A DNA stretch of 64,000 nt from Candidatus Aminicenantes bacterium (GTDB taxonomy: Bacteria > Acidobacteriota > Aminicenantia > JAMOAD01). A program made the position numbers and the translations under genes. This document shows, piece by piece, positions 27,475 through 48,014 of the stretch; position 1 is the first letter of the stretch, and every line of letters begins with the position of its first letter. The stretch lies in contig JAMOUT010000075.1 of assembly GCA_027061995.1 (NCBI GenBank), positions 92 through 64,091 on the forward strand, written 5' to 3'. The notes beneath the pieces were generated by a model that saw only the letters and a program-made list of their open reading frames with translations, was not told the DNA's origin and did no database searches.

Positions 27475-28350
27475 TTAGTATTCCACTTTTTCCAATGAAA
27501 ACTCATCGGAAATCAGGGAAAAAGACCCCCCTATTATAGATGTTTTTGAAAAACATTTCCTATATAAAGCATAAAAAAGAATCATAATTTTAAAAGGAAT
27601 ACAAGAAAACAAATAATAGAGAAACAAACTTTTCACATCGAACCATTTGCCATATCTTTCTTTCTCCTCTCTATTAGAAAAACTGGTGTTCTTCCTATAA
27701 CTTACATCTAAAAAACATTCTTTAAATTCAATACCGGCAAATTCAAAGATTTTTATCAAAAGCTCAATATTTTTATTTTTAATGTCGGAATATTTGATAA
27801 AAAATACAGGAAATTTCCGAATTATTTTTTTCCTTGCTTTTTTTGATAAAATATAAAGAAGAACCTCTCTTGTCAAAGAACCCTTTATTCCTATTTTCTT
27901 TTGAAAATTAATCGCTGATTTAACATTATCAAGAAAAGCTCTTTCTATAATTATAAAGTTAGCATCAGGAAATTTTTTTTTGAGCTTAAAAAAATTTAAT
28001 ATGTGAGCTTTTTGTAACCACGCTTTTCCCCCTTCTTTTCTTGTGAAAGCATCCATGACAAACTCAAATACGGTGAGATAATCCTTAAAACGATTTTCAT
28101 ACAAAAGCTTCTTCTCAAGCCCTGTCAACCTGAAAAAATCACCCGAAGTAAAAGTTTCAACAAAAGCAATATAGTTATCAATCCTATTCAAAGTACCAAA
28201 AATCGATGGGAAAACTTCAAAAAGATTTGTTTCTACTATACCTCTGTGATATTCACTCTGTATGCCTTTAACTTTATCAGAGTTAAGAATAATATTCGAC
28301 AACCATTTTGTTCCCGAACGGTCTTTTCCTAATACAAAAATCCTTTTCAT
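27475..28350 (-). CDS. Sulfotransferase (PAPS-dependent)
   Basis: The N-terminal 5'-PSB-like loop VLGKDRSGTKWL matches sulfotransferase GxxRSGTT. The size is ~290 aa. APS kinase is encoded in the same locus. Confidence 0.55.
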   Translation of the reverse strand: MKRIFVLGKDRSGTKWLSNIILNSDKVKGIQSEYHRGIVETNLFEVFPSIFGTLNRIDNYIAFVETFTSGDFFRLTGLEKKLLYENRFKDYLTVFEFVMDAFTRKEGGKAWLQKAHILNFFKLKKKFPDANFIIIERAFLDNVKSAINFQKKIGIKGSLTREVLLYILSKKARKKIIRKFPVFFIKYSDIKNKNIELLIKIFEFAGIEFKECFLDVSYRKNTSFSNREEKERYGKWFDVKSLFLYYLFSCIPFKIMILFYALYRKCFSKTSIIGGSFSLISDEFSLEKVEY

Positions 28351-32653: not shown

Positions 32654-33793
32654 TTATCTTCTCCTCTTCATTTCTTTACCTTTAAGATTAATTTCCGTAG
32701 AAGCAAGGACTTCATGAGTTTCAGCATTCCTGTAAACAACCTTAAATCCTCCGATTCCGGGGCCAAGCTTCATGCCTGTATTTATTGTTACAAATCTCTT
32801 ATTAGTTCTCATCCCTAATCTTCTTTTCGCAATAAATCTTCCCGTTTCTCCCTTTAATACAAGACCTCTTTTTGTAATTTTCCCGATTGTTTTAATAGGC
32901 TCTTCTCCTCTATACAAAACTATTTCTATTTCGGCTCCACCTTTCGCTAATCTTTCTCTGAAAACAGGATTTTCAAATCTTTTAAGTTTATTAATTTCCA
33001 ATCTTAAGCATTGAGGACAATAGGGACCGGGCTGCGGACCATCAGGACCAAAAGGACCCCAAGGACCCCAACCTATAATTATGCGAGCATTTCTGAGTTT
33101 TTCTATAATCCACGGATCAATATGGATACCGTTATCACTGCAGTTATCACTAATTGTAAAAACATCGCCATTGTCATAGACAGCATTATCAACGGTTTTT
33201 ACTCTTACTACATAAGAACCATTGGGAATAGTGTTAGGAATTGTCCATGAGAAAGAACCGTCATTGGCAGTCGGATTTACTATGATAGTTTGCAAAGTAG
33301 TCAAATCAGTCTTATATAGCGTAATCTTAACACTATCATTCATGCTACCGCTCTTTGTCCATCTGATTGTGTGAGAACTTCCTTTCTCTAAACAATCTCC
33401 ACTACGCGGATCGGTTACCGTAATCGTGCCACCCGTCGGAGCAGATGTTGCGATATTGAAAACATCACTATCATCATAAACCTGATTATCAATTGTCTTT
33501 ACCCTGACAATATACTGACCGTTAGGAATGGAATTAGGAATTGTCCATGAGAAGGAACCATCATTAGCGGTCGGCCTAACTATTATCATTTGTAATGTCG
33601 TATGATCGGGTTTATACAGCGTAATTTTAACATTATTGTCCATACTACCGCTCTTTGTCCATCTGATAGTATATGTGCTTCCCTTGTGCCATGTTGAGCC
33701 CGAGTGGGGATTTGTTACTGTTATGCTTTGTGCATAACTCATTGCAGTTATGAAAACCGCAATCAATAAAAACAATAAAACTTTTTTCTTCAT
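32654..33793 (-). CDS. Secreted modular protein, family member 1: signal peptide, 2x Kre9/KNH-like ~90-aa domains, variable Gly/Pro-rich C-terminus
   Basis: The start is set at ATG 33793 after GGAGG. The signal peptide is MKKKVLLFLLIAVFITAMSYAQS. The repeats read ITVTNPHSGSTWHKGSTYTIRWTKSGSMDNNVKITLYKPDHTTLQMIIVRPTANDGSFSWTIPNSIPNGQYIVRVKT. Confidence 0.8.
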   Translation of the reverse strand: MKKKVLLFLLIAVFITAMSYAQSITVTNPHSGSTWHKGSTYTIRWTKSGSMDNNVKITLYKPDHTTLQMIIVRPTANDGSFSWTIPNSIPNGQYIVRVKTIDNQVYDDSDVFNIATSAPTGGTITVTDPRSGDCLEKGSSHTIRWTKSGSMNDSVKITLYKTDLTTLQTIIVNPTANDGSFSWTIPNTIPNGSYVVRVKTVDNAVYDNGDVFTISDNCSDNGIHIDPWIIEKLRNARIIIGWGPWGPFGPDGPQPGPYCPQCLRLEINKLKRFENPVFRERLAKGGAEIEIVLYRGEEPIKTIGKITKRGLVLKGETGRFIAKRRLGMRTNKRFVTINTGMKLGPGIGGFKVVYRNAETHEVLASTEINLKGKEMKRRR

Positions 33794-33828
33794 TTGAAAA
33801 CCTCCTTTAGTTTTTAATAAATAGTATA

Positions 33829-33845
33829 TGCATTTTTTGTGCCAT
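33829..33845 (-). promoter_or_regulatory. Sigma54-like -24/-12 element (minus strand reads TGGCACaaaaaaTGCA)
   Basis: The GG-N10-GC spacing is exact. It lies ~40 bp upstream of the start codon. The homologous element is conserved upstream of all family members. Confidence 0.45.
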
Positions 33846-33918
33846 AGCGCATTATTTAAGAAAACGGTTGATATCATTGCATTTTATTTTGTCCACCACT
33901 ATTCATCAAACAACCGAA

Positions 33919-33958
33919 CGACAGAATTGTCGGCCGGTTAGACAAAAATGTCGGCCGG
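33919..33958. promoter_or_regulatory. Tandem palindromic upstream sites (cGACAgaatTGTCggccgg / GACAaaaaTGTCggccgg), candidate enhancer/UAS
   Basis: A GACA-N4-TGTC dyad recurs upstream of every family member, 70-110 bp from the -24/-12 element. Confidence 0.45.
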
Positions 33959-34045
33959 TTTTAAAATTATTGACAAAAATGTTAATCTTCTCCGGAATTG
34001 TTTTCCCCTTTTGGCTATAATTATATTTGATTTCGCGTATTGATT

Positions 34046-34082
34046 TAAAAAAAAAGCCGCCTTTTCATCTGAAAAGGCGGCT
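34046..34082 (-). terminator. Rho-independent terminator of family member 2 (agccgccttttc-atct-gaaaaggcggct followed by a T-run on the minus strand)
   Basis: A 12-bp GC-rich stem is followed by a run of 9 T on the coding strand. Confidence 0.7.
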
Positions 34083-34103
34083 TATATATCTGATACGGTT
34101 TTT

Positions 34104-35621
34104 TTATTTCAGCATATCATTAATTGCTTTTCCACTTTTACTCATACTATTGTTATTCGGATTACAATCATCATTAGTTTTAAGATTATCAGCTCCTATA
34201 TCAGGGTCATATGTAAGATAAACTTTGAATGTGGGCGGAAACTCCCCTTCATTCGGAGAACTCGAATTCCAATCCATCTCATAGTTTATTGTGATAGTTT
34301 CTCCCGCTTTAAGATTCTGAAAATTTTTCGTTTTTAAGGGATGAGTAGGATCTCCCATATCCATAACTATCATCTGTTGGTTAGGGTGGCTTATGTAATC
34401 CGCATTGCCCACATTCTTAACTACCCCTGTAATTCTGACTTTCCCTCTGAATTGACTATACTTTCTTACTATACTAAATTTTATATCCACTACGGCAAGG
34501 TCAGGACACTTTTTAGTAAGCCTTGCATTTTGTAAAATCTTAGGGTTAATTGTAGTAATAAGTGAATTATTATAAACTCTTCCATGCTCCATACCTTTAA
34601 CTTTTAGTTCCTTTTCACCTATCGGGTTTTTACCGGAAAAAACCACCAATTTGTAACCGCGAGGATTCCTTCCCATCATTTCCTTTTGTTTAGGTGTTAA
34701 TCTTAAATCAAACATGCTCGGCATACTATTAAAAAAGACTCCTCCTCTTTTTACCATAGGTCTGAATACACCAAAATTATAAATGACCTCTCTTCCTTTC
34801 ATCAACTTTATAGTTACCGGCTGTTTAATGTTTGATTTCTCAAGAGCATTTTTAATACCACCGATTCCACGAATTCTGGGACCCGGTCCGTGCATGTAAA
34901 TAGCAAGTTCGGCAAGATTCAGGCTTGCACGAAAACGCCCGAAGTCAATAGAAGGAATTCCACTATCACAATTATTACTAATAGAAAAAATGTCACTATC
35001 ATCATATACGGTATTGTCAACTGTTTTTACTCTTACAACATAAGAACCTTCGGGAATAGAGTTCGGGACTACCCAAGTATAAGCACCATCATTGGCAGTC
35101 GGGTTTACTATGATAGTTTGTAAAGTAGTCAAATCAGTCTTATATAGCGTAATCTTAACACTATCATTCATACTACCGCTCTTTGTCCATGTGATCGTGT
35201 GAGAACTTCCTTTTTTCCAACAATCTCCACTATGCGGATCGGTTACCGTAATCGTGCCACCCGTCGGAGCAGGTGTTGCGATATTAAAAACAACACTATC
35301 ATCATAAACAGCATTGTCCATTGTCTTTACTCGGACAATATACTGGCCATCAGGAATGGAATTGGAAACCACCCACGAGAAAATGCCGTCATTAGCAGTC
35401 GGCCTAACTATTATCATTTGTAATGTCGTATGATCGGGTTTATACAGCGTAATTTTAACATTATTATCCATACTACCGCTCTTTGTCCAAGTGATATTAT
35501 AAGTGTTTCCCTTATACCATGTTGAACCCGAGTGGGGATTTGTAACGGTAATGCTTTGAGCATAACTAAAGGCAATCATAAAAACTGCAATTAAAAAAAT
35601 CATTAAAACTCTTTTCTTCAT
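34104..35621 (-). CDS. Secreted modular protein, family member 2: signal peptide, 2x Kre9/KNH-like domains, C-terminal CARDB-like domain
   Basis: MKKRVLMIFLIAVFMIAFSYAQS is followed by the same tandem domains. The C-terminal CPDLAVVDIKF...ITGVVKNVGNAD resembles CARDB. Confidence 0.8.
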   Translation of the reverse strand: MKKRVLMIFLIAVFMIAFSYAQSITVTNPHSGSTWYKGNTYNITWTKSGSMDNNVKITLYKPDHTTLQMIIVRPTANDGIFSWVVSNSIPDGQYIVRVKTMDNAVYDDSVVFNIATPAPTGGTITVTDPHSGDCWKKGSSHTITWTKSGSMNDSVKITLYKTDLTTLQTIIVNPTANDGAYTWVVPNSIPEGSYVVRVKTVDNTVYDDSDIFSISNNCDSGIPSIDFGRFRASLNLAELAIYMHGPGPRIRGIGGIKNALEKSNIKQPVTIKLMKGREVIYNFGVFRPMVKRGGVFFNSMPSMFDLRLTPKQKEMMGRNPRGYKLVVFSGKNPIGEKELKVKGMEHGRVYNNSLITTINPKILQNARLTKKCPDLAVVDIKFSIVRKYSQFRGKVRITGVVKNVGNADYISHPNQQMIVMDMGDPTHPLKTKNFQNLKAGETITINYEMDWNSSSPNEGEFPPTFKVYLTYDPDIGADNLKTNDDCNPNNNSMSKSGKAINDMLK

Positions 35622-35657
35622 TTGAAAACCTCCTATAGTTCCTTAATAAACAGTATA

Positions 35658-35674
35658 TACATTTTTTGTGCCAT
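35658..35674 (-). promoter_or_regulatory. Sigma54-like -24/-12 element (TGGCACaaaaaaTGTA)
   Basis: Paralogous to 33829-33845, with GT in place of GC at -12. Confidence 0.4.
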
Positions 35675-35750
35675 AGAGCATTATTTTAGAAAACGGTTGA
35701 TATCATTGCTTTTAATTTTGTTCTCCCTTATGCACTAAACGATGAATCGA

Positions 35751-35785
35751 CTAATATGTCGCCTAAACAGACAGAAATGTCAGTC
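35751..35785. promoter_or_regulatory. GACAgaaaTGTC dyad plus half-site, candidate UAS
   Basis: Same position relative to the promoter as in member 1. Confidence 0.4.
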
Positions 35786-35841
35786 AATTTTAAAATTATT
35801 TTCCCCTTTTGGATATGATTATGTTGCTTTAATATTGATTT

Positions 35842-35874
35842 AAAAAAGCCGCCTTTTCGTTGGAAAAGGCGGCT
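35842..35874 (-). terminator. Rho-independent terminator of family member 3 (agccgccttttc-gttg-gaaaaggcggct)
   Basis: The stem is nearly identical to the terminator at 34055-34082, so it was duplicated along with the gene. Confidence 0.7.
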
Positions 35875-35896
35875 CTATCTCTGAGACAGTTTTTAT

Positions 35897-37651
35897 TTAT
35901 TCAATAAAATCAAATACTGTGATATAGGTGCCTTCAACATTATGAGCCTTGATTGCTTTACTTGAAATAACATGGTTTTTATCTTTTATAACAAGCGCAT
36001 ACTTTATTAGCTTTCCGCACGGAGCTCTCTTAACCTTAACAACATATTTGTTGCTATACGGATAATAACAGGTAGAATTCATCATCTTTTTGTTTATGGG
36101 AATCTCTTTCAATCTTTCCCATGTTTTTGTTTTTTCTCTGTAATATTTAATATATGCTTCTTCGGCTCCGACAAAATCATACAGGAATGCAACCGTTCCT
36201 TCATTATGGTAAGTCACTCCTGTTTCAACTTTTTTTGTTTGATCGACGATTTTAAAACTTTTGATATAAGGTTTGCGTTTAACCCAAAGAATTGAATAAG
36301 AATTATTGTCTTTTCCTATTGATTCCATTTCGATTGTTATATCTCTGTATTTATCATGAATTTGAAAGGAACCTATGCTTGAGTCTTTTTTACTATCATA
36401 TGTTACCCAATTCTTTTTAGTTTTAGTATCATATATTTTACCCCTTACAGCATCAACAAAATTATAATAGATTAAAGGTGGAATTTGTCCGCAATTCACC
36501 CAAACAGTTTTATTTTTGGTATCTTTAAAAAAAAGTTTTGATTTTATATTTATATCTCCTCGCTTAACCTTTAAGTTTAACAAAGCCTTATTGTTATCTT
36601 CGTTCGCTTCGTCAATCAATCTGCTTGAATCAACCATAACCTGAAGAGTATAATAACCGGCTTTAGTATATTTAATATTGTTTAACCTGATAACAATTTG
36701 CTCATTCCTTTTTAAACCATATTTCACAAATCCTTTTGATATGCTATTGTCATTATTATAAGCATAGGTTTTAAAAAATTTATCTGCCGGAATATCATTC
36801 CCGATATTCTTTATTGTTACTTTAATGGAAAAAGGTCTGTTTGAATACAAGGTGGAAGGCTCTGTTTCAACTTTTATAATTTTAAGATCAGGTTTGTATT
36901 CCATGAATTTTTGCAATGGCTCCGCGAGAGTATTATTATATGTTTTTAATGTTGCAGTTTCCGGTTGATTATAATTGTCTTTGATAAAATCTGTCAAAGA
37001 ACTTCTTTTAATTGTAAAAACAGCACTATCATCATATACCTTGTTATTCATCGTTTTCACTCGGATAATATACTGTCCATCAGGTATGGAATTAGGAATT
37101 GTCCATGAGAAGGAACCATCATTGACGGTCGGCCTAACTATTATCATTTGTAATGTCGTATGATCGGGTTTATACAGCGTAATTTTAACATTATTGTCCA
37201 TGCTACCGCTCTTTGTCCATCTGATTGTGTGAGAACTTCCTTTCTCTAAACAATCTCCACTATGCGGATCGGTTACCGTAATCGTGCCACCCGTCGGAGC
37301 AGGTGTTGCGATATTAAAAACAACACTATCATCATAAACCTGATTATCAATTGTCTTTACCCTGACAATATACTGACCGTTAGGAATGGAATTAGGAATT
37401 GTCCATGAGAAGGAACCATCATTAGCGGTCGGCCTAACTATTATCATTTGTAATGTCGTATGATCGGGTTTATACAGCGTAATTTTAACATTATTGTCCA
37501 TACTACCGCTCTTTGTCCATCCGATAGTATATGTGCTTCCCTTGTGCCATGTCGAGCCCGAGTGGGGATTTGTAACGGTAATGCTTTGGGCATAACTAAA
37601 GGCAATCATAAAAACTGCAATTAACAATAACATTAATACTTTTCTTTTCAC
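35897..37651 (-). CDS. Secreted modular protein, family member 3: signal peptide, 2x Kre9/KNH-like domains, long variable C-terminus with CARDB-like segment
   Basis: MKRKVLMLLLIAVFMIAFSYAQS is the signal peptide (GTG start). KPDLKIIKVETEPSTLYSNRPFSIKVTIKNIGN is CARDB-like. The protein is 584 aa. Confidence 0.8.
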   Translation of the reverse strand: MKRKVLMLLLIAVFMIAFSYAQSITVTNPHSGSTWHKGSTYTIGWTKSGSMDNNVKITLYKPDHTTLQMIIVRPTANDGSFSWTIPNSIPNGQYIVRVKTIDNQVYDDSVVFNIATPAPTGGTITVTDPHSGDCLEKGSSHTIRWTKSGSMDNNVKITLYKPDHTTLQMIIVRPTVNDGSFSWTIPNSIPDGQYIIRVKTMNNKVYDDSAVFTIKRSSLTDFIKDNYNQPETATLKTYNNTLAEPLQKFMEYKPDLKIIKVETEPSTLYSNRPFSIKVTIKNIGNDIPADKFFKTYAYNNDNSISKGFVKYGLKRNEQIVIRLNNIKYTKAGYYTLQVMVDSSRLIDEANEDNNKALLNLKVKRGDINIKSKLFFKDTKNKTVWVNCGQIPPLIYYNFVDAVRGKIYDTKTKKNWVTYDSKKDSSIGSFQIHDKYRDITIEMESIGKDNNSYSILWVKRKPYIKSFKIVDQTKKVETGVTYHNEGTVAFLYDFVGAEEAYIKYYREKTKTWERLKEIPINKKMMNSTCYYPYSNKYVVKVKRAPCGKLIKYALVIKDKNHVISSKAIKAHNVEGTYITVFDFIE

Positions 37652-37687
37652 TCTTAATTCCTCCTTTAATTTTAATAAAAAAAATAT

Positions 37688-37703
37688 TCAATTTTTATAC
37701 CAA
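37688..37703 (-). promoter_or_regulatory. Sigma54-like element (TGGTATaaaaaTTGA)
   Basis: Conserved position. The region 37652-37710 is identical to 42305-42362. Confidence 0.35.
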
Positions 37704-37775
37704 AACATATTCTTCGGAAAAATATTTAACCGCCTCGTTCTTTATAAAAAAACAAAATACTACCTTAAATAGATT

Positions 37776-37810
37776 GACGACAATATTGTCTTATTAAAAA
37801 CAATTTTGTC
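37776..37810. promoter_or_regulatory. GACgACAATATTGTC palindrome plus ACAATTTTGTC, candidate UAS
   Basis: A perfect 12-bp dyad GACAATATTGTC is present. Confidence 0.45.
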
Positions 37811-38042
37811 TATAATCTATACAAAGGTGTTGGCATTTGTTTTGTTCCTTATGATTTTCCCCTTTTTATTTTATCTTTGATACATCCGTCTCGGTTTTTT
37901 AATATATTAAAAAGAATCATAATAAGAATATTATATTTACCCGTCTCATTCTCTTATGAATTTAATATTTCACAAAGAGTAAATAAAATATGACAAAAAA
38001 TTCTCTGAAACATCATTATTATTTTTATCTTACCCCGCCAGT

Positions 38043-38078
38043 AAAAAAAAAGAGGGCAAACTTCGTTTGCCCTCTTTT
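38043..38078. terminator. Bidirectional rho-independent terminator (aaagagggcaaac-ttcg-tttgccctcttt)
   Basis: A 13-bp stem is flanked by A-run and T-run, downstream of family member 4. Confidence 0.7.
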
Positions 38079-38106
38079 TATATCTTCGTTTTGTTATTAT
38101 TTCCTA

Positions 38107-39423
38107 CTATCTCTCCAGAACCTCTATCTCCATATAAACATTATCATAATAATCAACACACTTGTTATTATTATGAGAAAAGCTCTCATCCACTCCGGTG
38201 AAAATTATTCCGTGATTGAAAGAGGGATTTCTAACCCATTTTCTAACCAAAGACGATAAATTTCCCTGTGGATTTTCAATAAGCTCAATAGAAGCATTAA
38301 ACAGGTTACTAAAAGGTTTTGTGACCCTGTAAATTCTTAAGCCACAATAGTTCCCCTTATAATGATGGTAGTGAAGGGTAGCTTTTGTTATCAAACCTTT
38401 ACCCTTTAGCTTACTTACATCGAAAAAAGCATGGGCACGGTATGCTTCTCCATAATAATTATATGTTATCGAATCTTCTTTATAAGTATTTGCATAACCA
38501 ACCCTTAATTTTCCGTTACCAGGATCATCATATTTAAACCCCAGCACAAAAGGCGCTCCACCAATTATTGATGATTTTTTCTTATTTTTCCAATGATAAG
38601 TGTTCGTTGTTTTCGCATAAATTTTGTATTTATGAGTTTTTATAGAAGCAAAAATATGAAATGGCTTACTATATCCTACAGCACCATCCTTTTTCCTGAC
38701 TATTTTAATCCTATGATCTCCTATATATTTTATAACATTAGCAAACAGTCTCTCAGGAATCTTCCAATCATAAGTCTTAAGTTTTGATTTATCCCCCCAA
38801 CGAGAAAGGCTAATAAAACCTGCTCTAATAACCTTTTCGACCTCTTTTTTATCAAAACTCACAAGATAAATAGCAAATTCTTCTCCAGATTTTCCTTCCC
38901 ACTTAATCGTCATTGTGGAACCTTCCTTCCACTTGCCTCCGGTAGGACTAATAATGTTAATGGTCTTTAATTTGCCGTTTTTACCGGGATTCACCGCATC
39001 AAGAATGGCGCCAATGTTTTTACTATTATCAGGCTTAATTATGCCCGCATATTTTCCAACATTGGATAAAGAGTCAATTTTAAACACTTCTCCATCATCA
39101 TACACAGAATTATCCATTGTCTTAACTCTTACTAAGTATTTACCGCTCGGGATACTATTCGGGATTGTCCATAAAAATGACCCATTGTTGGGAGTAGGTT
39201 TTGCGATAATATAAATAAGAGACTTATGATCAGGTTTATAAAGAGTGATTTTAACCTGTGAATCCATGTTTCCACTCTTACTCCAAACAATCTTATAGGT
39301 ATTGCCTTTAATCCAGGTATTTTGGGAATTAGGCTTTTTGACAGTTATTGTCCCTGAACCTGAATAAGCAAATGCAACAAAAAATAAAATGACCACAACA
39401 AAAATTAAAAGTTTTTTTCTCAT
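38107..39423 (-). CDS. Secreted modular protein, family member 4: signal peptide, 1 divergent Kre9/KNH-like domain, different C-terminal beta-rich region
   Basis: The start is set at ATG 39423 after GAGGAGG. The signal peptide is MRKKLLIFVVVILFFVAFAYSGSG. The domain reads ITVKKPNSQNTWIKGNTYKIVWSKSGNMDSQVKITLYKPDHKSLIYIIAKPTPNNGSFLWTIPNSIPSGKYLVRVKT. Confidence 0.75.
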   Translation of the reverse strand: MRKKLLIFVVVILFFVAFAYSGSGTITVKKPNSQNTWIKGNTYKIVWSKSGNMDSQVKITLYKPDHKSLIYIIAKPTPNNGSFLWTIPNSIPSGKYLVRVKTMDNSVYDDGEVFKIDSLSNVGKYAGIIKPDNSKNIGAILDAVNPGKNGKLKTINIISPTGGKWKEGSTMTIKWEGKSGEEFAIYLVSFDKKEVEKVIRAGFISLSRWGDKSKLKTYDWKIPERLFANVIKYIGDHRIKIVRKKDGAVGYSKPFHIFASIKTHKYKIYAKTTNTYHWKNKKKSSIIGGAPFVLGFKYDDPGNGKLRVGYANTYKEDSITYNYYGEAYRAHAFFDVSKLKGKGLITKATLHYHHYKGNYCGLRIYRVTKPFSNLFNASIELIENPQGNLSSLVRKWVRNPSFNHGIIFTGVDESFSHNNNKCVDYYDNVYMEIEVLER

Positions 39424-39455
39424 TATAACCTCCTCTAAAAAAGTAAAAAAGTTTA

Positions 39456-39471
39456 TCAATTTTCATGCCAA
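39456..39471 (-). promoter_or_regulatory. Sigma54-like element (TGGCATgaaaaTTGA)
   Basis: Matches TGGCAYG-N4-TTGM. The gene start lies ~35 bp downstream. Confidence 0.4.
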
Positions 39472-39532
39472 AGTTTAAAACCATTGAATACACCAATATT
39501 TAACAAATAAAAAAAGATTTCTAAAAAATTTT

Positions 39533-39570
39533 GCCGACAATATTGTATGATAAAAAACATTTTTGTCGGG
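39533..39570. promoter_or_regulatory. GCCGACAATATTGTA and ACATTTTTGTCGGG dyads, candidate UAS
   Basis: Same motif class as the other members. Confidence 0.4.
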
Positions 39571-40858
39571 TTTCACTTGTTGAAAACTAAATGATAAATG
39601 TTATTTCGCCTGTTTTTTACACACGCCACCCAGCACTTTCTTTAAACAACCATAATAATTATTCTGCCGCTTCCATATAACTCTTAACCAAAGTTTCATA
39701 AAGATTTCTTTATCAGGAACCAACAGTTAAAACACTTTCATAATTACAATAAAATAATATTAAAACTATGACCATATCTTTCTCTTCAACTGTTTTTTTT
39801 CTTTTTGAATGTATTCAAAAGTTTTTTAGTTTACCTGTCATCTTTATTTTTTACCTTCCCTTTTTTATTTATTAAAAATTGCATAACTTCAAACTTTCAA
39901 CTTTGTTTTTGCACGATTGTTTCTTTCTTTATCTTCCCTAACAGTATGATAAGGGGCTATCTTATCTCAAGCCAAACATCTTTTAAGATATAAATCCACT
40001 CTTTTCTTTCTACAGCGTTAAATTTCCCGAGGGCAATTGATAGGATATTGAGGTATTTTATTCCTTTGGTTTATATAAAGAATTTATGTTTAGTAGGTTC
40101 CAAGACTTTTTCCCTATATTTTTACGCCACCTCATACTTTTTCTTTACTAATTATTAACTTTCGGAGTCATTAACCATACAATGAGATCATGTAGAGTTT
40201 CTCTTGATACAGTCATATCTTTACGCTTGCATTCATCTCCCCGTTTTTTGACCACCTTATGGTATATGAATGAACACTCTTCATACCAAGTATTACACAA
40301 TATCGAAGCTGTTACTATAATACTCTGCAAATGCCCCAGAGAGGATAAACATCATAATAAATAAACATTATAATTTTTTTTCTATCATTTTAGACATACA
40401 AAATTCATGAAATATAGGTTTAATCTTTATGCCATACTATTTATTATTATATTAATGCTTTAAATATTATTTAATAACTATATTTAAACTATTTTTAATA
40501 ATTAATTTGCAAGGTTAGCTAAAAAAAGACAAAAAAATCTATAAATAATTATATTTATACATTGCTGTCCTATAAGATTCAGAGTGTCCAAAAGAGAGTA
40601 ATATCAAGAGTTAACGAAAAAGATAAGTAAGATTTCTTTTTTTACTCTATTAAAAAAGTTAATCAATTTTCATATAATTAGTCCTTTCTAATTATTAGTC
40701 GAGTGTTCTCCTTATGAAAAAATTAAAATTTTGTAATGACGGCGGTTAAACATCTCGGATATACAATTTTCTTTTGAAAATATAGCAGAATCAACAATCG
40801 TTTTTTTGTCCAAAAAAATCCTTTCATTTTTCCTTTCTTTTATATTATTAAAATTTTT

Positions 40859-42304
40859 TTAATTAGAGCATTTTTTCTTTCCTGTATTATGAACAGGTGC
40901 TCCCACACCTACAACTTTTATATAAGTTTTAACTAAATTGTTCCCAATAGAACGCTCCGCACAATCACTGTTAATCGGGCAAACTACATAAACAGCAACT
41001 TTTCTTACCCCCGATAAAAACCATCTGTTCTCTACAGTATAGGATCTATGACCTCCCGGAGAGATTTTTGGTAAACTAAAAATTTTGGGAGGGTCCGGAG
41101 GGAGAGTGGGATCATGCACTATATTCTTTATCAAAATCTGTAAATTACATCTACTGCAGGAATTTTGATCTCCGATGTTTTTTACATCAACATTTAATAT
41201 TACTTTTTTACCGGGAGCCACCTCTTTTTTATCATCCACACAAACAATAAGATCAGGAAGACCTTTTGTAAAAATTGTCTTTATAATTTTATTATTATCA
41301 TACCTCTTTTCTCGAACTCCTCTGCTCTCATTAACAGTATAAGTAAAAATGTATCTACCCTTCTTCTTAAAATAAAAATCAGCTTTCCAATTAACACTTC
41401 CACCTCGAGAAATATTAGAAAAGATATGTTTTATCACTTTTGTATAATTTTCAGGTCCATTAACAACAAGTTTTGTTTCAACATTATTCACACCCTTTAA
41501 ACCCATATTCCCCACTTTAACTTTAAACTCAGTTTTATTAACAGTTCCTCCGACAGGTGCAAGAGAGGCCTCCCGAATATAAAGATCGGGTAGAGATATA
41601 ATTTCTGTAGCCGGGTTGTTCCCAATGATAATATTGTCAAGAAGATTATCAATATAAAAAAGTTTGCTCTCTGTTGAAATTCCCCCTCCTATAGTTTTTA
41701 TTTTAATTAAATATTTTCCATTATCCAAAACTGACGGAATCCTCCACATATAAAAATTTTCCCCGAGATTATTTTCACAAGATGAGACAACATCCATAAC
41801 AAAGGATACGCCATGTCCAGCTTGCTTATAAAGCTTAATTTTCACCTGTGAAGACATATCCCCTTCCCTTTTCCATCTTATTTTATAAGTTCTGTTCTTT
41901 CTTAATTTTTCTCCACTTAAAGGGAAAATCATGGTTAGCTTAGGTTGAATAACCGATTCAGAGATTGTAAAATTATCGGAATCATCATAAACCTGATTAT
42001 CAATTGTCTTTACCCTGACAATATACTGACCGTTAGGAATGGAATTAGGAATTGTCCATGAGAAGGAACCATCATTAGCGGTCGGCCTAACTATTATCAT
42101 TTGTAATGTCGTATGATCGGGTTTATACAGCGTAATTTTAACATTATTGTCCATACTACCGCTCTTTGTCCATCCGATAGTATATGTGCTTCCCTTGTGC
42201 CATGTCGAGCCCGAGTGGGGATTTGTAACGGTAATGCTTTGGGCATAACTAAAGGCAATCATAAAAACTGCAATTAACAATAACATTAATACTTTTCTTT
42301 TCAC
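40859..42304 (-). CDS. Secreted modular protein, family member 5: signal peptide, 1 canonical plus 1 divergent Kre9/KNH-like domain, 2 CARDB-like domains, Cys-rich C-terminus
   Basis: The 5' ~350 nt are identical to member 3. LPDLYIREASLAPVGG...KVKVGNMG and LPDLIVCVDDKKEVAPGKKVILNVDVKNIGD are CARDB-like. Confidence 0.8.
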   Translation of the reverse strand: MKRKVLMLLLIAVFMIAFSYAQSITVTNPHSGSTWHKGSTYTIGWTKSGSMDNNVKITLYKPDHTTLQMIIVRPTANDGSFSWTIPNSIPNGQYIVRVKTIDNQVYDDSDNFTISESVIQPKLTMIFPLSGEKLRKNRTYKIRWKREGDMSSQVKIKLYKQAGHGVSFVMDVVSSCENNLGENFYMWRIPSVLDNGKYLIKIKTIGGGISTESKLFYIDNLLDNIIIGNNPATEIISLPDLYIREASLAPVGGTVNKTEFKVKVGNMGLKGVNNVETKLVVNGPENYTKVIKHIFSNISRGGSVNWKADFYFKKKGRYIFTYTVNESRGVREKRYDNNKIIKTIFTKGLPDLIVCVDDKKEVAPGKKVILNVDVKNIGDQNSCSRCNLQILIKNIVHDPTLPPDPPKIFSLPKISPGGHRSYTVENRWFLSGVRKVAVYVVCPINSDCAERSIGNNLVKTYIKVVGVGAPVHNTGKKKCSN

Positions 42305-42339
42305 TCTTAATTCCTCCTTTAATTTTAATAAAAAAAATA

Positions 42340-42355
42340 TTCAATTTTTATGCCA
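42340..42355 (-). promoter_or_regulatory. Sigma54-like element (TGGCATaaaaaTTGA)
   Basis: Identical context to member 3. Confidence 0.4.
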
Positions 42356-42430
42356 AAATGTTTTATTTGTTAAAAATATCATAAAATATTAAATAACATT
42401 AAAAACAATTTTTTTGGTAACAAGTAAAAT

Positions 42431-42448
42431 ACAACAATTTTGTCGATT
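42431..42448. promoter_or_regulatory. ACAACAATTTTGTCG dyad, candidate UAS
   Basis: Same motif class. Confidence 0.35.
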
Positions 42449-42612
42449 CAAATACAATTACAATAAGTGGCCTTCATGTAGAACAATCACGGTTTTCAAC
42501 CAAAATATCTTTTTGTTAAAATTAATATAAGTATTTAGTAATAGAAAAGCGTTCATTGCTAAAATTATAATATAAAATAAAAGATAAAAACATCCCTGAA
42601 TAACAAGTTTAT

Positions 42613-43869
42613 CTATTTCAATTTGAACACATGGATAATGGGTTTATCCTTATCAACATAAGGTTCCGCAATATAAAGATATCCCCTATCTCTATCAAAA
42701 GCAACAGCTCCCAAATGATCTTTTTGCTGATTGGAATTTATATGAAAAAGATATTTATCTATGTTCAAACTTGTGTATGGCTGAGGTTCATAAGGTTTAG
42801 ACCTTCCTTCTATGACCTTTTTAAAATCATCGGGATCATAAAACAGGATAATGCCGTCAAGATAGGTTGACCACCAACCTCTATTATCACATTCAAGACA
42901 GGGTCCATCCTGATTCCCGTACCAGCACTCACCTCTCCCCTTTGTTCCAACAAAAACAACGGCAGCTTTATCTCCCTTGGTCAACCATACGGCTCCCTGC
43001 CATTCATCCGAATTATGATAATTTTTCATCTTGTGTTGAGTTTGATCAAGATCCTCTGTTGAAGTATATTTTAAAAGAGTTTTAAAATTGAGTTTTGTCC
43101 CGTTTGAGGGGGGATTACCCTGTTTCCAGGGGGCGACGGCAAAGAGAGAAGGTCCTTGTCCCGACCACCCTCCGTCTCTGAATCTTCCTGTGGCAAGCTG
43201 ATAACCATCTATATATTCATCAGCCCAATTTTTCGGAATTTCAAACATATAATCATTAGTGCAATATTCATGATGAGGTGTATCAATATACCAATTACCC
43301 GCTTTTTTTGGATTTGATAAATCAAGTTCACACCGGCCGTGAGTTAGATCGGAAGGTTCCTGATAATGTTGTCCGATACAGAAATAGAGTTTTGCCGAAT
43401 TTTGATTTTCCTGCTTGGGAAGATATGTAATGCCCACTCTCGGAATCTCATAATTTGAGATATTAAGGATATCCTTGAATTTCTGTATTGTTTTTGCTCT
43501 CGGTAATTCGGAAAGAACCTTATTTTTTGAAATAACGGGTTTTGGAATACTTATTTCCGATATTCTATATTCCCAAGCATGTCCTGTTCCATAAAGGGAA
43601 CCCGGGTATCCGTCATTTTCTCCGTTTTTATCCCCTTCGGGACAATAAGTAAGAGCAAATCCTCCCCATTCCCAACTGTTAACTATCTCTCCTGTTCCAT
43701 CAGGCAATCTGAATGCTCCCATATACTCCAAATCGGAAGGTTGTATCAGTTGAGTGGGGATAGGGATGTTACTATTATTCGTATCTTCATCATTACCATT
43801 TTCAGTAGCTTTATTGCAATTGAACGCTAATAAAATTAAAAACAAAAATAATATAAAATATTTTTTCAT
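42613..43869 (-). CDS. Secreted hypothetical protein (signal peptide; unrelated to the family) embedded in the array
   Basis: MKKYFILFLFLILLAFNCNK has a signal peptide with a non-canonical lipobox. No Kre9-like domain is present. It starts 13 bp after the upstream terminator. Confidence 0.5.
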   Translation of the reverse strand: MKKYFILFLFLILLAFNCNKATENGNDEDTNNSNIPIPTQLIQPSDLEYMGAFRLPDGTGEIVNSWEWGGFALTYCPEGDKNGENDGYPGSLYGTGHAWEYRISEISIPKPVISKNKVLSELPRAKTIQKFKDILNISNYEIPRVGITYLPKQENQNSAKLYFCIGQHYQEPSDLTHGRCELDLSNPKKAGNWYIDTPHHEYCTNDYMFEIPKNWADEYIDGYQLATGRFRDGGWSGQGPSLFAVAPWKQGNPPSNGTKLNFKTLLKYTSTEDLDQTQHKMKNYHNSDEWQGAVWLTKGDKAAVVFVGTKGRGECWYGNQDGPCLECDNRGWWSTYLDGIILFYDPDDFKKVIEGRSKPYEPQPYTSLNIDKYLFHINSNQQKDHLGAVAFDRDRGYLYIAEPYVDKDKPIIHVFKLK

Positions 43870-43881
43870 TTTAAATAACCC

Positions 43882-43910
43882 AAAGCGGGAGAGTTTTACT
43901 CTCCCGCTTT
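43882..43910 (-). terminator. Rho-independent terminator of family member 6 (aaagcgggagag-tttt-actctcccgcttt)
   Basis: A 12-bp GC-rich stem is followed by U-rich sequence on the minus strand. Confidence 0.6.
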
Positions 43911-43928
43911 ATTTATTATATACAGATA

Positions 43929-45353
43929 TCAGAACAAACGAACGCCTACTCTATAGCGATTATTCTCCTTATCAGATTCGCATCTTGTAATTCTACTTGT
44001 GATGGTTATATACATAGTATAGTGTCCCGCTTTTAATCTGGGATGAACAGAATGTTTTTTGCTCGGGTGACCGAATATTTTATTAAAGCTTATCACTTTT
44101 TCTTCATTACGATCAAACTTGAATGGCCCATAAGTTCCATTGGCACCTTCTATTTCTTGAAAACCACCCTTATAAAGTTCCCATTTTACAAATACATTAT
44201 ACAAAGATGAATAACCGGAACCTCCTGCTTTGGCATGAATTTTAAATTTCACTCGCCAGCGATGGGAAGGTCTTCCGTAAACTTTTTTAATTTTAAAATC
44301 ACTTATTCTGGTAATCATCAAATCTGCATCAGTTACATATATTTTCTTAATTAGTTTATTGTTTCTTTCATCTGTTTCAGTAATTTCGTTCTCAGGATCA
44401 ACTTGTATATAAACGCTTGTTCCGCAAAGATTAACGCCTTCCAAATCCGAGCGATGAACAAGGCATATGTTAAGTTGACTGTTAGCGTTTAATCGGATAT
44501 TATCCTTATTTATATTAAAACGCCTCATAGGCTGATTGTCGGGAATAACTAAAACGCGATACTTAAAAGGTCCATTATAAGCGCTATAATAATTTTTTAT
44601 ATTAGCTCCGATACATCCGTCAAAAGATCTTGAGAAAAAGATATCTTTCACTTCGAAATCGCGCATAATTCTAAGGTTGTGCCCCAGATAATCTCCAAGG
44701 GTACTGCTTGCTATATTAAAAATTTCGCTATCATCATATACGGCATTATCCATTGTCTTTACCCTTACTACATACTGTCCATTAGGTACACTTGAAGGAA
44801 TACTCCATGAATACGAACCATTATTTGCTGTCGGTCTTACTATTATTGTCTCAAGAGTTTCTCCATCAGTATGGTAAAGCGTTATCTTTACCTGACTATC
44901 CATTGCTCCTGTCTTAGTCCATCTTATCGTATAAGAATGACTGTCTCCTTTATACCATGTTTCTCTACTAGGAGAGGTTACATTTATTGATGCTGCGGGC
45001 GCATTGGCGATAGTAAAAACAGCACTTTCTCCGTAAACGGCATTATCCATAGTTTTTACTCTTACTACATACTGACCTGCATGAACGCTTGTCGGAATAC
45101 TCCATGAATACGAACCATTATTTGCTGTTGGTCTTACTATTATTGTCTCAAGAGTTTCTCTGTCAGTATGGTAAAGAGTTATCTTTACCTGACTATCCAT
45201 TGCTCCTGTCTTAGTCCATCTTATCGTATAAGAATGACTGTCTCCTTTATACCATGTTTCTCCCGAATGTGGGGAAGTTACTGTTATTGTCTGTGAAAAA
45301 CATAGTACCCCCATAATCATTACTACAAAAAACAAAAATAATTTTTTCTTCAT
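43929..45353 (-). CDS. Secreted modular protein, family member 6: signal peptide, 2x Kre9/KNH-like domains (divergent subtype), variable C-terminus
   Basis: The signal peptide is MKKKLFLFFVVMIMGVLCFSQT. The repeats read ITVTSPHSGETWYKGDSHSYTIRWTKTGAMDSQVKITLYHTD.ETLETIIVRPTANNGSYSWSIP.SV..GQYVVRVKT. Confidence 0.8.
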   Translation of the reverse strand: MKKKLFLFFVVMIMGVLCFSQTITVTSPHSGETWYKGDSHSYTIRWTKTGAMDSQVKITLYHTDRETLETIIVRPTANNGSYSWSIPTSVHAGQYVVRVKTMDNAVYGESAVFTIANAPAASINVTSPSRETWYKGDSHSYTIRWTKTGAMDSQVKITLYHTDGETLETIIVRPTANNGSYSWSIPSSVPNGQYVVRVKTMDNAVYDDSEIFNIASSTLGDYLGHNLRIMRDFEVKDIFFSRSFDGCIGANIKNYYSAYNGPFKYRVLVIPDNQPMRRFNINKDNIRLNANSQLNICLVHRSDLEGVNLCGTSVYIQVDPENEITETDERNNKLIKKIYVTDADLMITRISDFKIKKVYGRPSHRWRVKFKIHAKAGGSGYSSLYNVFVKWELYKGGFQEIEGANGTYGPFKFDRNEEKVISFNKIFGHPSKKHSVHPRLKAGHYTMYITITSRITRCESDKENNRYRVGVRLF

Positions 45354-45392
45354 GATCTTTTACCTCCTTTATTTGTTAATATAATAACCTTA

Positions 45393-45407
45393 TCAAATTC
45401 TATGCCA
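45393..45407 (-). promoter_or_regulatory. Sigma54-like element (TGGCATagaatTTGA)
   Basis: Conserved motif and spacing. Confidence 0.4.
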
Positions 45408-45480
45408 CAATCTCTTTTGCGATAAAAAAGCTTAATTCTATTCTTTCTTCAGGAAAACAACTTTTTCATTTTTTTATAAT

Positions 45481-45517
45481 TTCGACATTATTGTTATATT
45501 AACAACGAAATTGTTAA
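45481..45517. promoter_or_regulatory. TTCGACATTATTGTT / AACAACGAAATTGTT degenerate dyads, candidate UAS
   Basis: Degenerate version of the GACA-N4-TGTC site. Confidence 0.3.
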
Positions 45518-46288
45518 GCTTTTCAATTAAATTCTTTTATTTCGAAACAGTACTATAAGCTTATAATCAGAGTTATCAATTTTATTCTATATAAATCTGT
45601 TGAAAGAGAAAAAGCGACACCTCATATATATTCACTTATATTAATTATTCCTTTAGTATTAGTTAGCAAAACTTTAACTCCCTTATAGTCGAACAATTTT
45701 AACCGGAGTAATCTTATCTTCCCTTTTTTATCAATCTTAGGGATATTGTTTTCCTGCTTTTTACTCAAAAAAATATTATTCTTTATTATTAGTCGGTAAT
45801 TTAGTTATACAATTAACAAAACGGTCAAATCCTTTTAAATATTCTTTATTATATTAAAGGGTGTTACATATAAATTTTTTAACATGGTTAATTATTGCAG
45901 GCTCACAATGATTTTAAAAAACTGTGATAAAAATACAAATATTTTTGAGCCTACTTAAATATATTTTTTTTAAACATTAAAATTAACTATAATTCAATCT
46001 TAATTGTATTAACTGCGGGAGCAAAACGAATTTTACTTTCCAAAACCCCTGTTTTAGCAATTACAATAAGTTTAGGACATACTCTTTTATGGATACCGAA
46101 AAATAATTTTTATGTGCTTAATTTAATTTCCCCTTTACAAATATTAGCACAATGATTTGATTTGTCTGTTTCCAATCGAATATCTTTTCCCTTTTTATCT
46201 TTACTCTTATTTTTTATTTTTTACCGCATTTTCTTCTCTTTCTCATTCTTTAAACATTATTAAAAACAAACTATTTCACTTCCCCTTA

Positions 46289-47317
46289 TTAATTATCAGA
46301 ACCTGAGTTAAATTTTGTTTTATTTATAATTGTTTTCTTTGTCTTTATCTTTTTTAAAGGAGATACCGATAGCTTTGTAATAGTAAAAACTCCGCTATCA
46401 TCAGAATATTTACCATCCTTTGTTCTTATCCTGATAAAATATTTACCCGAGGGAATAGTTGCGGGAATCTTCCACTTATAATCTTTTGCACTGGTTGGAT
46501 ATCGTCTTGTTATAATAGTTTGCAATTTTTTATTATCCGCTCTGTAAAGAGAAAGCTCAATGTAAGGATCAAGCTTTGACAATGACATTGTAAACCATCC
46601 GATATCATATTTCAGACCTTGATACCATTTAAAGCCTTTTTCAGGGGTTTGTAATTTTAAGGTAGGTGGAATATCAAGTATATAAAAAACATCACTGAAA
46701 GCAGAGACTCTCCCATCCGTGGTTATTACTTTAACAACATACTGTCCTTCAGGTATTGAAGAAGAAATATTCCATCTATAATTACCACTGTTCCGCACTC
46801 TTCTTGCAATTTCGGTTTGTAAAGTTCTTTTATCAGGCTTAAATAAAAATATGTTCACATATCTGTCCATGGAAAACAAACGCATCCAGGCTATGTCAAG
46901 CACATCCAATCCTTTATAAAATTTTTGATTTTTATAAGGAGCTTGAATAGCTATGGCAGGTGCAGGCTCTTTAACAGTAAAGTATCCGCTGTTCCCTGAA
47001 ACAGCAGTATTAGTCCCTACTATTTTTATATAATAGGAGCCCGGTTTTAAATTTGTCGGAACTAACCATTTGTAATTTCCATTATTAAAAACATTATTTC
47101 CTATGTCCAGCACTTTCCCTTGTTTATCACACAAATAGATATTAATATGAGAAATAATGTGTTTTTTAATTGTCATTTTCCATTTTACCGGAACATATGA
47201 TTCCCAAGTCCAAACACTTCCTGATTTGGGAGAAACCACATTAATTCTACCCGCAGAATAGAGCACACTTCCTAACACAAAGAGGACCAACAAACTTACA
47301 AAAATTTTTTTGTTCAT
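46289..47317 (-). CDS. Secreted modular protein, family member 7: signal peptide plus 3 divergent Kre9/KNH-like domains, short basic C-terminus
   Basis: The signal peptide is MNKKIFVSLLVLFVLGSVLYSAG. Three repeats follow the pattern W..G..Y.I.W......YV.I.L....K.LQT.I.RR......Y.W.I....P.G.Y.V.V.T.DG. Confidence 0.7.
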   Translation of the reverse strand: MNKKIFVSLLVLFVLGSVLYSAGRINVVSPKSGSVWTWESYVPVKWKMTIKKHIISHINIYLCDKQGKVLDIGNNVFNNGNYKWLVPTNLKPGSYYIKIVGTNTAVSGNSGYFTVKEPAPAIAIQAPYKNQKFYKGLDVLDIAWMRLFSMDRYVNIFLFKPDKRTLQTEIARRVRNSGNYRWNISSSIPEGQYVVKVITTDGRVSAFSDVFYILDIPPTLKLQTPEKGFKWYQGLKYDIGWFTMSLSKLDPYIELSLYRADNKKLQTIITRRYPTSAKDYKWKIPATIPSGKYFIRIRTKDGKYSDDSGVFTITKLSVSPLKKIKTKKTIINKTKFNSGSDN

Positions 47318-47340: not shown

Positions 47341-47356
47341 TCAAATACCATGCCAA
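47341..47356 (-). promoter_or_regulatory. Sigma54-like element (TGGCATggtatTTGA)
   Basis: Conserved motif ~25 bp upstream of the start codon. Confidence 0.4.
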
Positions 47357-47444
47357 AAAAAGATACCTCTCCATAAATAAATTTATTGTTTTTACTATTA
47401 CTTTCTTTCAGGGCAATCTTTACCTCAAGTATCTATCGCCATTT

Positions 47445-47475
47445 ATGTCGATATGCATACATTTTTGTCAATTTT
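47445..47475. promoter_or_regulatory. ATGTCGATAT / CATTTTTGTCAA partial dyads, candidate UAS
   Basis: Weaker version of the site. Confidence 0.25.
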
Positions 47476-47689
47476 AAAAGTTCAATTACTTCTTAACTGA
47501 TTTTCAAAATATTCTTAATTTCCTGTCCACACTTTAAGAAAATGCGTCTTTTGGATTATATAAATTTAAAAAAAGAAAATTAATCTATGGCTTGCTGCTA
47601 CTACCATTAAGTTTTTTATTTTTAAAATATTGGATTTATTGCTTTCTCTTGCACTATTATAAAGGTAAACTTTCATTTAAATTCATACA

Positions 47690-47983: not shown

Positions 47984-48014
47984 ACGACAATATTGTCGTT
48001 CAGGGAACAAAATT
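47984..48014. promoter_or_regulatory. Perfect 16-bp palindrome ACGACAATATTGTCGT plus AACAAAATTGTA, candidate UAS
   Basis: This is the best copy of the dyad in the window. Confidence 0.45.

Follow-up and report, generated by a model that had tools for sequence, protein, structure and literature searches.

Introduction

Concerted evolution of paralogous genes by gene conversion is known in bacteria from the tuf and rRNA gene copies, and long-lasting cases have been catalogued (PMC6053082), and in Mycobacterium tuberculosis examples are pairs of PE_PGRS genes and conversion at the scale of outbreaks (PMC1762029, PMC12046097). Here we analyze an array of tandem paralogous genes for secreted proteins with immunoglobulin-like (Ig-like) Kre9_KNH domains in a stretch of 64,000 nucleotides (nt) from Candidatus Aminicenantes bacterium (assembly GCA_027061995.1, contig JAMOUT010000075.1, positions 92 to 64,091), which is referred to as the window throughout the text. 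The near-identical blocks at the 5' ends of these genes are very probably a consequence of segmental gene conversion. The bab/sab paralogs of Helicobacter pylori are another family subject to gene conversion, and gene families with conserved 5' and variable 3' parts are found in mycoplasmas and in Helicobacter. The array resembles the known cases of concerted evolution in that paralogs are closer to each other than to their orthologs, identical tracts form a mosaic, synonymous sites are identical and exchange appears to take place between dispersed or tandem direct repeats. It differs from them because only the 5' module (leader, signal peptide and Ig-like domains) is homogenised while the 3' halves are unrelated in sequence, and because exchange would also take place between domain repeats inside one gene.

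The vlp, vsp and vsa families of Mycoplasma and the pilE/pilS genes of Neisseria make use of phase-variable promoters, of a single expression site accompanied by silent cassettes, or of a dedicated invertase. The array shares with them a conserved 5' part (promoter, signal peptide and N-terminus) combined with variable C-termini in a clustered family, but it has neither phase-variable promoters, a single expression site with silent cassettes nor, among ORFs (open reading frames) of at least 150 aa (amino acids), an invertase, and its C-termini are stable orthologs.

In Clostridioides difficile, proteins of the Cwp family combine a constant CWB2 anchor with variable domains and are encoded directly upstream of the locus for their glycan ligand PSII (PMC4973711). 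The proteins of the array are likewise secreted, consist of a constant repeated module and variable domains, and are encoded in a cluster beside a surface-polysaccharide locus. Unlike in C. difficile, the constant module is Kre9_KNH and the organism is presumably diderm, and the functional parallel would be a hypothesis drawn from the gene neighbourhood; a Pfam search found no CWB2 or SLH domains in the family. The founding members of the Kre9_KNH family (PF10342) are fungal Kre9/Knh1 and SGP1-type proteins (PMC8079714, PMC12091936), with which the proteins described here share the Pfam domain and a secreted or cell-surface location. The fungal proteins are GPI (glycosylphosphatidylinositol)-anchored or O-glycosylated and have a single domain, while the bacterial domains described here occur in tandem and are fused to CARDB-like modules. 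We found no literature on Kre9 in Aminicenantes or on PF10342 in bacteria. The process is known and the gene family undescribed: this is ordinary concerted evolution, with no new mechanism, and not a switching system. What is new are the bacterial Kre9_KNH array family, its conserved regulatory architecture and its constant linkage to a polysaccharide locus, which was found in three genomes.

Results

Shared blocks in the 5' parts of the genes

The open reading frame (ORF) listing and Pfam search revealed seven tandem paralogs, m1 to m7, all on the minus strand (32654-47317; Table 1). All of them follow a common plan, which comprises a Sec-type signal peptide (MKKK..., a hydrophobic core and SYAQ/S), one to three Kre9_KNH domains and a C-terminus specific for each member. 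Kre9_KNH was detected in all seven, in one to three copies each, with scores of 50.7-90.7 bits (gathering threshold 24.6 bits). The initial annotation implied five members; besides seven intact genes we found pseudogene remnants at ~40180-40380 and 47629-47865, both in long spacers of the array (tblastn), which indicate birth-and-death turnover.

The longest shared block is found in m3 and m5, which are identical over 371 nt, from -47 to +324 in relation to the start codon (up to codon 108). With blastn the two genes are 98.0% identical over 399 nt, and past the exact block similarity drops to the background; on the promoter side the exact tract stops at a single mismatch within the -24 element. 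An exact repeat of this length in 64 kb cannot be due to chance. The upstream leaders of m3 and m5, initially reported as equal (37652-37710 and 42305-42362), are identical over 47 nt and match at 55 of 59 positions over the whole stretch. Domain 1 of m1 belongs to the same group, with exact tracts of 198 nt shared with m3 and 194 nt shared with m5, while the 60 nt at the start of m1, coding for its signal peptide, are only 75% identical to those of m3 and m5. The m2 gene is more diverged, with 80-93% identity to the others per 60-nt bin (~87% overall) and longest exact runs of 68-91 nt. The claim that the first ~330 nt of m1, m2, m3 and m5 are identical or nearly so is correct for m3 and m5 and for domain 1 of m1, and incorrect for m2 and the signal peptide of m1.

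Domain 2 of m3 is a chimera, the 5' part of which is similar to domain 2 of m1 and the 3' part to domain 1. An older block of 971 nt is shared by m1 and m2 and includes both domains, the signal peptide and the entire intergenic region, together with the upstream gene's terminator. The second-domain blocks of these two genes, described before as near-identical, are similar but at the level of 87%, and are part of this longer block with 81.5% identity. Of the two terminator hairpins in question (34055-34082 and 35848-35874), also said to be near-identical, the 13-bp stems are the same and the loops differ; they terminate the upstream genes, m2 and m3.

The C-terminal coding parts show no similarity with blastn, and BLASTP E-values among them are at least 0.007. 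The lack of detectable similarity between downstream halves thus stands at the DNA level, but some C-termini are distant homologs, since CARDB (PF07705, gathering threshold 22.7 bits) was found by Pfam in both m3 (48.8 bits) and m5 (53.6 bits). The score of m6 is under the threshold (18.8 bits), and in a Pfam search of the C-terminal parts m1, m2 and m4 matched neither CARDB nor another family. Altogether, pairwise nucleotide alignment of the array confirmed that the observation is real, with corrections regarding m2 and the size of the family.

Table 1. Features of the Kre9_KNH array and their positions in the window.
Feature	Position	Strand	Description
m1	32654-33793	-	signal peptide, 2 Kre9_KNH, 160-aa (amino acid) C-terminus; 379 aa; adjoins epimerase gene; PF10342 E=5e-23
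m2	34104-35621	-	signal peptide, 2 Kre9_KNH, alpha/beta middle domain, C-terminal beta-sandwich; 505 aa
m3	35897-37651	-	GTG start; signal peptide, 2 Kre9_KNH, CARDB, unassigned C-terminus; 584 aa
m4	38107-39423	-	signal peptide, 1 Kre9_KNH, unassigned C-terminus; 438 aa; outside homogenised set
Pseudogene remnant, Kre9 domain 1	~40180-40380	-	stop codon and frameshift; tblastn E=3.5e-8
Promoter-like TGGCATAAAGATTAA	40420-40434	-	belongs to Kre9 pseudogene remnant at 40180-40380
m5	40859-42304	-	GTG start; signal peptide, Kre9_KNH, divergent second Kre9, CARDB x2; 481 aa
Embedded gene	42613-43869	-	418 aa, between m5 and m6, unrelated to family; probable lipoprotein signal; single-copy ortholog anchor
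m6	43929-45353	-	signal peptide, 2 Kre9_KNH, C-terminus; 474 aa; its two domains 89% identical (DNA)
m7	46289-47317	-	signal peptide, 3 Kre9_KNH; 342 aa; last gene of array
Pseudogene remnant, CARDB-like C-terminal domain	47629-47865	-	internal stops; tblastn E=2.6e-5 vs S_L4_1423
371-nt exact tract, m3 copy	37328-37698	-	-12 promoter element, leader, ribosome-binding site, signal peptide, domain 1
371-nt exact tract, m5 copy	41981-42351	-	exact-match comparison
198-nt exact tract, m1 domain 1	33466-33663	-	identical to m3 37324-37521; 194 nt of the tract identical to m5
91-nt exact tract, m2 domain 1/domain 2 linker	35219-35309	-	identical to m3 37249-37339; site partitions turn to m2 with m3
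Chimeric part of m3 domain 2	37086-37201	-	114/116 nt identical to m3's own domain 1 (37386-37501)
Older 971-nt block, m1/m2	33141-34108 vs 34969-35901	-	81.5% identical
Sigma54-like -24/-12 elements	m1 33829-33844, m2 35658-35673, m3 37687-37702, m4 39456-39470, m5 42340-42355, m6 45393-45407, m7 47341-47355	-	38-54 nt upstream of start codons
GACA-N4-TGTC palindromes	m1 33920-33952 (sites listed to 33983), m2 35749-35781, m3 37779-37810, m4 39536-39567, m5 42433-42444, m6 45484-45495, m7 47438-47469; further site 47986-47997	.	upstream of start
Intrinsic terminator of m2	34054-34083	-	13-bp stem and U-tract; -21.9 kcal/mol, z-score -7.3
Intrinsic terminator of m3	35846-35875	-	stem identical to that of m2 terminator, loop differs; -23.4 kcal/mol, z-score -6.3

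Mosaic structure and synonymous divergence

The shared blocks are mosaics in which the nearest relative alternates. A Sawyer-type permutation test on polymorphic sites gave a global p of 1e-4 and pairwise p values from 1e-4 to 0.0095, with five of the six pairs at 1e-4. Along 666 aligned nt of m1, m2 and m3 the best-supported pairing switches at least five times: m1 pairs with m2 at sites 0-23, m2 with m3 at 18-77, m1 with m3 at 95-311, m2 with m3 at 328-388, m1 with m3 at 403-449 and m1 with m2 from 453 onward. Synonymous divergence (dS) ranges from 0 to 0.09 within the tracts, and next to them, in the same pairs of genes, it is 0.4-1.44. An example is the pair m1 and m3, with dS of 1.44 in the signal-peptide codons and 0.087 in the adjacent domain 1, while for m3 and m5 these values are 0 and 0.04, respectively. 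In the 971-nt block of m1 and m2 dS is 0.40-0.62.

One could attribute this similarity to purifying selection or codon bias alone, with no recombination. Selection does act on the diverged module, since the ratio of nonsynonymous to synonymous divergence is ~0.17-0.32 for m1 and m2. But the 371-nt block is identical at all synonymous sites and its identity continues into non-coding DNA, the 47 nt of the upstream leader shared by m3 and m5. Identity of both kinds rules out selection on the protein as its cause; in addition, the tracts end abruptly and orthologs are only 56-59% identical in this domain, so that this explanation has practically no probability. Concerted evolution by recombination or gene conversion, as initially proposed, is supported by the mosaic tracts, by the low dS inside them compared with nearby segments and by paralogs being closer than orthologs.

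In the Kre9 modules that exchange sequence, GC content at third codon positions is 34-39%, compared with 25-30% in the C-terminal parts (m1-m6 and members of the arrays L003/L004), with the window as a whole at 32% GC. This pattern is suggestive of, or compatible with, GC-biased gene conversion, although it is confounded by amino-acid composition.

Comparison with arrays of related genomes

The nearest public relative is a metagenome-assembled genome (MAG) labelled 'Candidatus Aminicenantes bacterium', here called the sister genome, with DNA ~75% identical in shared genes. Its array is syntenic, has at least 15 members and lies beside the same epimerase and flippase genes. The gene embedded between m5 and m6 served as an anchor, as its 418-aa product is 74-75% identical in amino acids to that of its positional counterpart in the sister array. 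Orthologs of the array members were assigned by C-terminus and synteny. In the sister genome they were found for m1 (S_14578, also S_L3_14578; 47% full-length identity), m2 (S_10001, also P0023; 61%), m4 (S_16807) and m6 (S_13933), and in a third metagenome for m3 (T_L17_3488; 50%). The C-terminal parts are conserved orthologs, the relative order of which is kept between genomes of this divergence. Positional orthologs of m1, m2, m4, m6 and the 418-aa gene imply that genes with the present C-termini are older than the split of the two lineages.

The N-terminal modules show the opposite pattern, with 83-94% amino acid identity among paralogs and 56-59% to the orthologs of the sister genome. For each Kre9 domain of the window the nearest relative is another domain from the window, and the split between window and sister domains has bootstrap support of 0.99 (protein) and 0.98 (DNA). 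Comparable but less extreme homogenisation was observed in three other arrays from other samples.

The initial annotation also read the blocks as cassette duplication. According to such an explanation, a young cassette of promoter, signal peptide and domain would have been duplicated recently, with subsequent replacement or shuffling of the 3' halves, so that it became fused to different C-termini. Duplication does occur, as is evident from a 2843-nt tandem duplication of a two-gene unit, with copies 98.4% identical, in one assembly of the sister population. Orthologs of m2 carry one or two N-terminal Kre9 domains (396-409 aa vs ~495 aa), and the C-terminal ~140-aa domain of m2 is modular and occurs as a stand-alone protein in many phyla. 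The positional orthologs listed above nevertheless make cassette duplication unlikely, and simple duplication could not produce the alternating mosaic of m1, m2 and m3, nor does it explain the dS of 1.44 beside 0.087 in the same gene pair. As the origin of the similarity between m1 and m2 it is not supported, as each of these genes has a separate ortholog in the sister genome.

Exact-sequence look-ups with m5 and m3 retrieved no further contigs, and scans of metagenome contigs with a 30-nt piece of the shared domain 1 block and with an alignment of the N-terminal module found nothing. A scan of genome contigs anchored on the 418-aa gene gave 11 loci, with a Kre9 array beside it only in the sister MAG.

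Independent assemblies and variation within populations

Repeats of this kind could also originate from the assembly itself, by collapse or consensus mixing of diverged repeats, and the window is indeed part of a metagenomic contig (120,289 nt). We compared it with contigs L001, L019 and L023 of an independent megahit assembly (k-mer of 141 nt), which tile positions 24104-55353 at 99.89-99.99% identity, all of m1-m7 with their repeat copies included. Two features of this assembly speak for an artefact: it is broken exactly in the repeats of m3 and m5, 94 nt into the coding sequences, and differs from the window at three positions in domain 1 of m5. However, breaks at these places mean that there is a real repeat longer than the k-mer, and the two assemblies agree over the whole array. 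Collapse could explain neither the m1/m2 block at 81% identity nor the tree of domains, and the homogenised arrays from other samples are a further argument against it, which makes an assembly artefact a very unlikely source of the blocks.

A single nucleotide polymorphism between L001 and the window in domain 1 of m1 was considered as evidence of conversion and rejected, as it has no paralogous donor. Between L023 and the window, all four differences in 13.1 kb lie within 160 nt (48865-49024) at the 5' end of the BipA/TypA gene; this cluster may represent a short patch, imported or variable among strains, with no relation to the array.

The sister population is represented by two assemblies from different projects, L002 and L003, in which variation is confined to the repeats. 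They have no differences over ~21 kb outside Kre9-domain DNA, apart from the 2843-nt duplication carried by one of them. The differences inside this DNA include a patch of ~50 nt in one gene with 11 linked changes; in one assembly the patch equals domain 2 of that gene, in the other a domain of a paralog.

Promoter-like elements and palindromes

All seven members are equipped with a promoter-like element, a ribosome-binding site, a start codon and a complete ORF of their own, and terminators follow m1, m2, m3, m4 and m6. The promoter-like element is TGGCAY-N5-TTGA in most members and TGGCAC-N6-TGCA/TGTA in m1/m2. Position of GG and the spacing fit the -24/-12 elements of sigma54 (canonical TGGCAC-N5-TTGC), while the -12 element is non-canonical. 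Such elements are also present upstream of most members in four other arrays or genomes, and the canonical TTGC was found only in a relative, L022.

Palindromes GACA-N4-TGTC are located ~128 and ~148 nt upstream of the start codons and before most members are paired at a distance of 20-21 nt. In the window there are 5 exact copies of this motif, where 0.21 would be expected, and 20 with at most one mismatch, where 2.8 would be expected; outside of the upstream regions of the family it occurs only as in-frame AACATTATTGTC recurring in repeated Kre9 DNA and as three isolated one-mismatch matches. Palindromes are found at the same distances in arrays L003/L004, L017 and L018, while members in L020 and L022 have similar, more degenerate ones. 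In L022, which is a more distant relative, one family member has TGGCAT-N5-TTGC and a similar palindrome pair, and directly after this lone Kre9_KNH member lies a gene for an NtrC-type activator (Response_reg, Sigma54_activat and HTH_8; L022:11997-13385). Neither rpoN nor a cognate enhancer-binding protein is encoded within the 64-kb window. Since these motifs are conserved where the surrounding DNA is unrelated, they are held by selection and not by conversion alone. The palindromes are candidate sites for an enhancer-binding protein, and a common regulon of the family, with sigma54 and such a protein, may be inferred from these motifs.

The expression signals also bear on the earlier suggestion that the array allows C-terminal swapping under a constant export module, i.e. 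antigenic variation. In a programmed antigenic or phase variation system one expressed copy would be rewritten from the others by cassette conversion or site-specific recombination. The combination of conserved 5' and variable 3' parts does resemble the layouts of Mycoplasma vsa/vlp/vsp and Neisseria pilE/pilS, and one might in principle take the upstream palindromes for recombination sites. None of the copies is silent, though, as each member has the full set of signals described above, mostly with a terminator. All copies are in direct orientation and no inverted repeats flank them; apart from the terminators, inverted repeats are limited to weak AT-rich matches. Palindromes stand at a fixed distance from the -24/-12-type element, as do activator sites, and the L022 member adjoins an activator gene. 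Pfam search of ORFs of at least 150 aa in the window revealed no recombinase, invertase, reverse transcriptase or transposase. C-termini are stable across species and in the same order. C-terminal swapping is not supported by these results, and programmed variation is highly improbable. A diversity-generating retroelement, a shufflon and a transposon were likewise rejected, as the corresponding enzymes are absent from these ORFs.

Neighbouring genes and C-terminal domains

On its downstream side the array adjoins a large polysaccharide locus, also on the minus strand (~7150-32430), with genes for Wzz, an initiating sugar transferase, GT2/GT4 glycosyltransferases, a flippase, sulfatase/phosphodiesterase-type enzymes and epimerases. 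APS kinase (8034-8768) and a sulfotransferase (27475-28350) are also encoded there, and this gene content points to a sulfated surface glycan as its probable product. The adjacency of array and polysaccharide locus was observed in three genomes (the window, L003 and L020). On the other flank of the array are housekeeping genes (BipA, Rnf complex).

In an AlphaFold model of m2 (pLDDT 86) two beta-sandwiches are followed by an alpha/beta middle domain and a C-terminal beta-sandwich. Foldseek comparison of this model with PDB gave generic multi-Ig matches (complement C3, adhesins, an S-layer protein) and no functional lead, nor was there any match when solved structures were searched with a profile of the m2 family. 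The C-terminal ~140 aa of m2 (34104-34520) form a modular beta-sandwich with no Pfam family. Its stand-alone relatives are ~185-300 aa long and come from Cyanobacteria, Thermodesulfovibrio, Oligoflexia, Saprospiraceae and other groups; a few sources name proteins of this type 'CARDB domain-containing' or 'protease inhibitor I42 family'.

The embedded 418-aa gene had no match in a Pfam search. Homologs 40-54% identical are found in MAGs labelled Anaerolineales, Micrarchaeota, Promethearchaeota, Acidobacteria and Kosmotogaceae (L006-L016), which is an oddly broad distribution.

Discussion

In the model that we favour, segmental gene conversion, the array would be a chromosomal set of seven separately transcribed paralogs for Sec-exported proteins, each with a constant N-terminal module and its own, evolutionarily old C-terminal domains. 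Non-reciprocal, homology-dependent recombination would have occurred repeatedly, both between copies in direct repeat and between domain repeats within a gene. Conversion tracts of ~50-400 nt would begin in the promoter and leader or inside the module, and stop together with the homology, at the last Kre9 domain. The outcome would be concerted evolution of the 5' module inside each genome, with 3' parts that diverge like those of any other orthologs. Most of the exchange probably takes place among the most similar copies, m1, m2, m3 and m5, while m4, m6 and m7 seem to have largely escaped it. The same repeats demonstrably permit unequal crossing-over, leading to gain and loss of copies, and such birth and death of copies is seen in the duplication in the sister array and in the two pseudogenes described here. 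A RecA-type mechanism, the direction of single events and any selective benefit are what we infer.

Several points weigh against this model. The comparison includes a single well-sampled sister genome, and orthology of m5 and m4 is based on 29-38% identity. All of the compared genomes are short-read metagenome assemblies, in which repeats of different paralogs or strains may be joined into chimeras. Some of the micro-mosaic, as well as the 'segregating' conversion patch, could therefore be assembly noise; recombination events were deduced from assembled sequences and not from reads or experiment. In the window's own population, 4 of the 11 differences between assemblies fall into Kre9 DNA, which makes up ~13% of the sequence, a weak excess (p ~0.04, binomial estimate). 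The word 'ongoing', used for conversion in the initial annotation, is thus supported mainly by the sister lineage, by the patch with 11 changes and the 2843-nt duplication that differ between its assemblies, and weakly by the window's own population. Ongoing conversion is likely rather than proven.

The locus is a clear, well-delimited case of segmental concerted evolution in an uncultured phylum, with identifiable tracts, donors and escape copies and a conserved regulatory architecture, and would be useful as a test case when recombination in populations of environmental bacteria is studied with long reads. It is also a warning that such arrays break short-read assemblies and may be mis-assembled. 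The analysis also delineates a bacterial family of secreted proteins with Kre9_KNH domains, so far undescribed, the genes of which are consistently linked to a polysaccharide locus. Concerning its function, it is tempting to speculate, by analogy, that the Kre9_KNH module serves for surface attachment or glycan binding, with the sulfated polysaccharide of the adjacent ~24-kb locus as its ligand, that conversion would keep the modules matched as the glycan changes, and that the genes would form one sigma54/enhancer-binding-protein regulon through the paired GACA-N4-TGTC sites. We regard this as a rather doubtful proposal, but if true, the array would be a Gram-negative analogue of the C. difficile Cwp/PSII system, built with a domain so far studied only in fungi.

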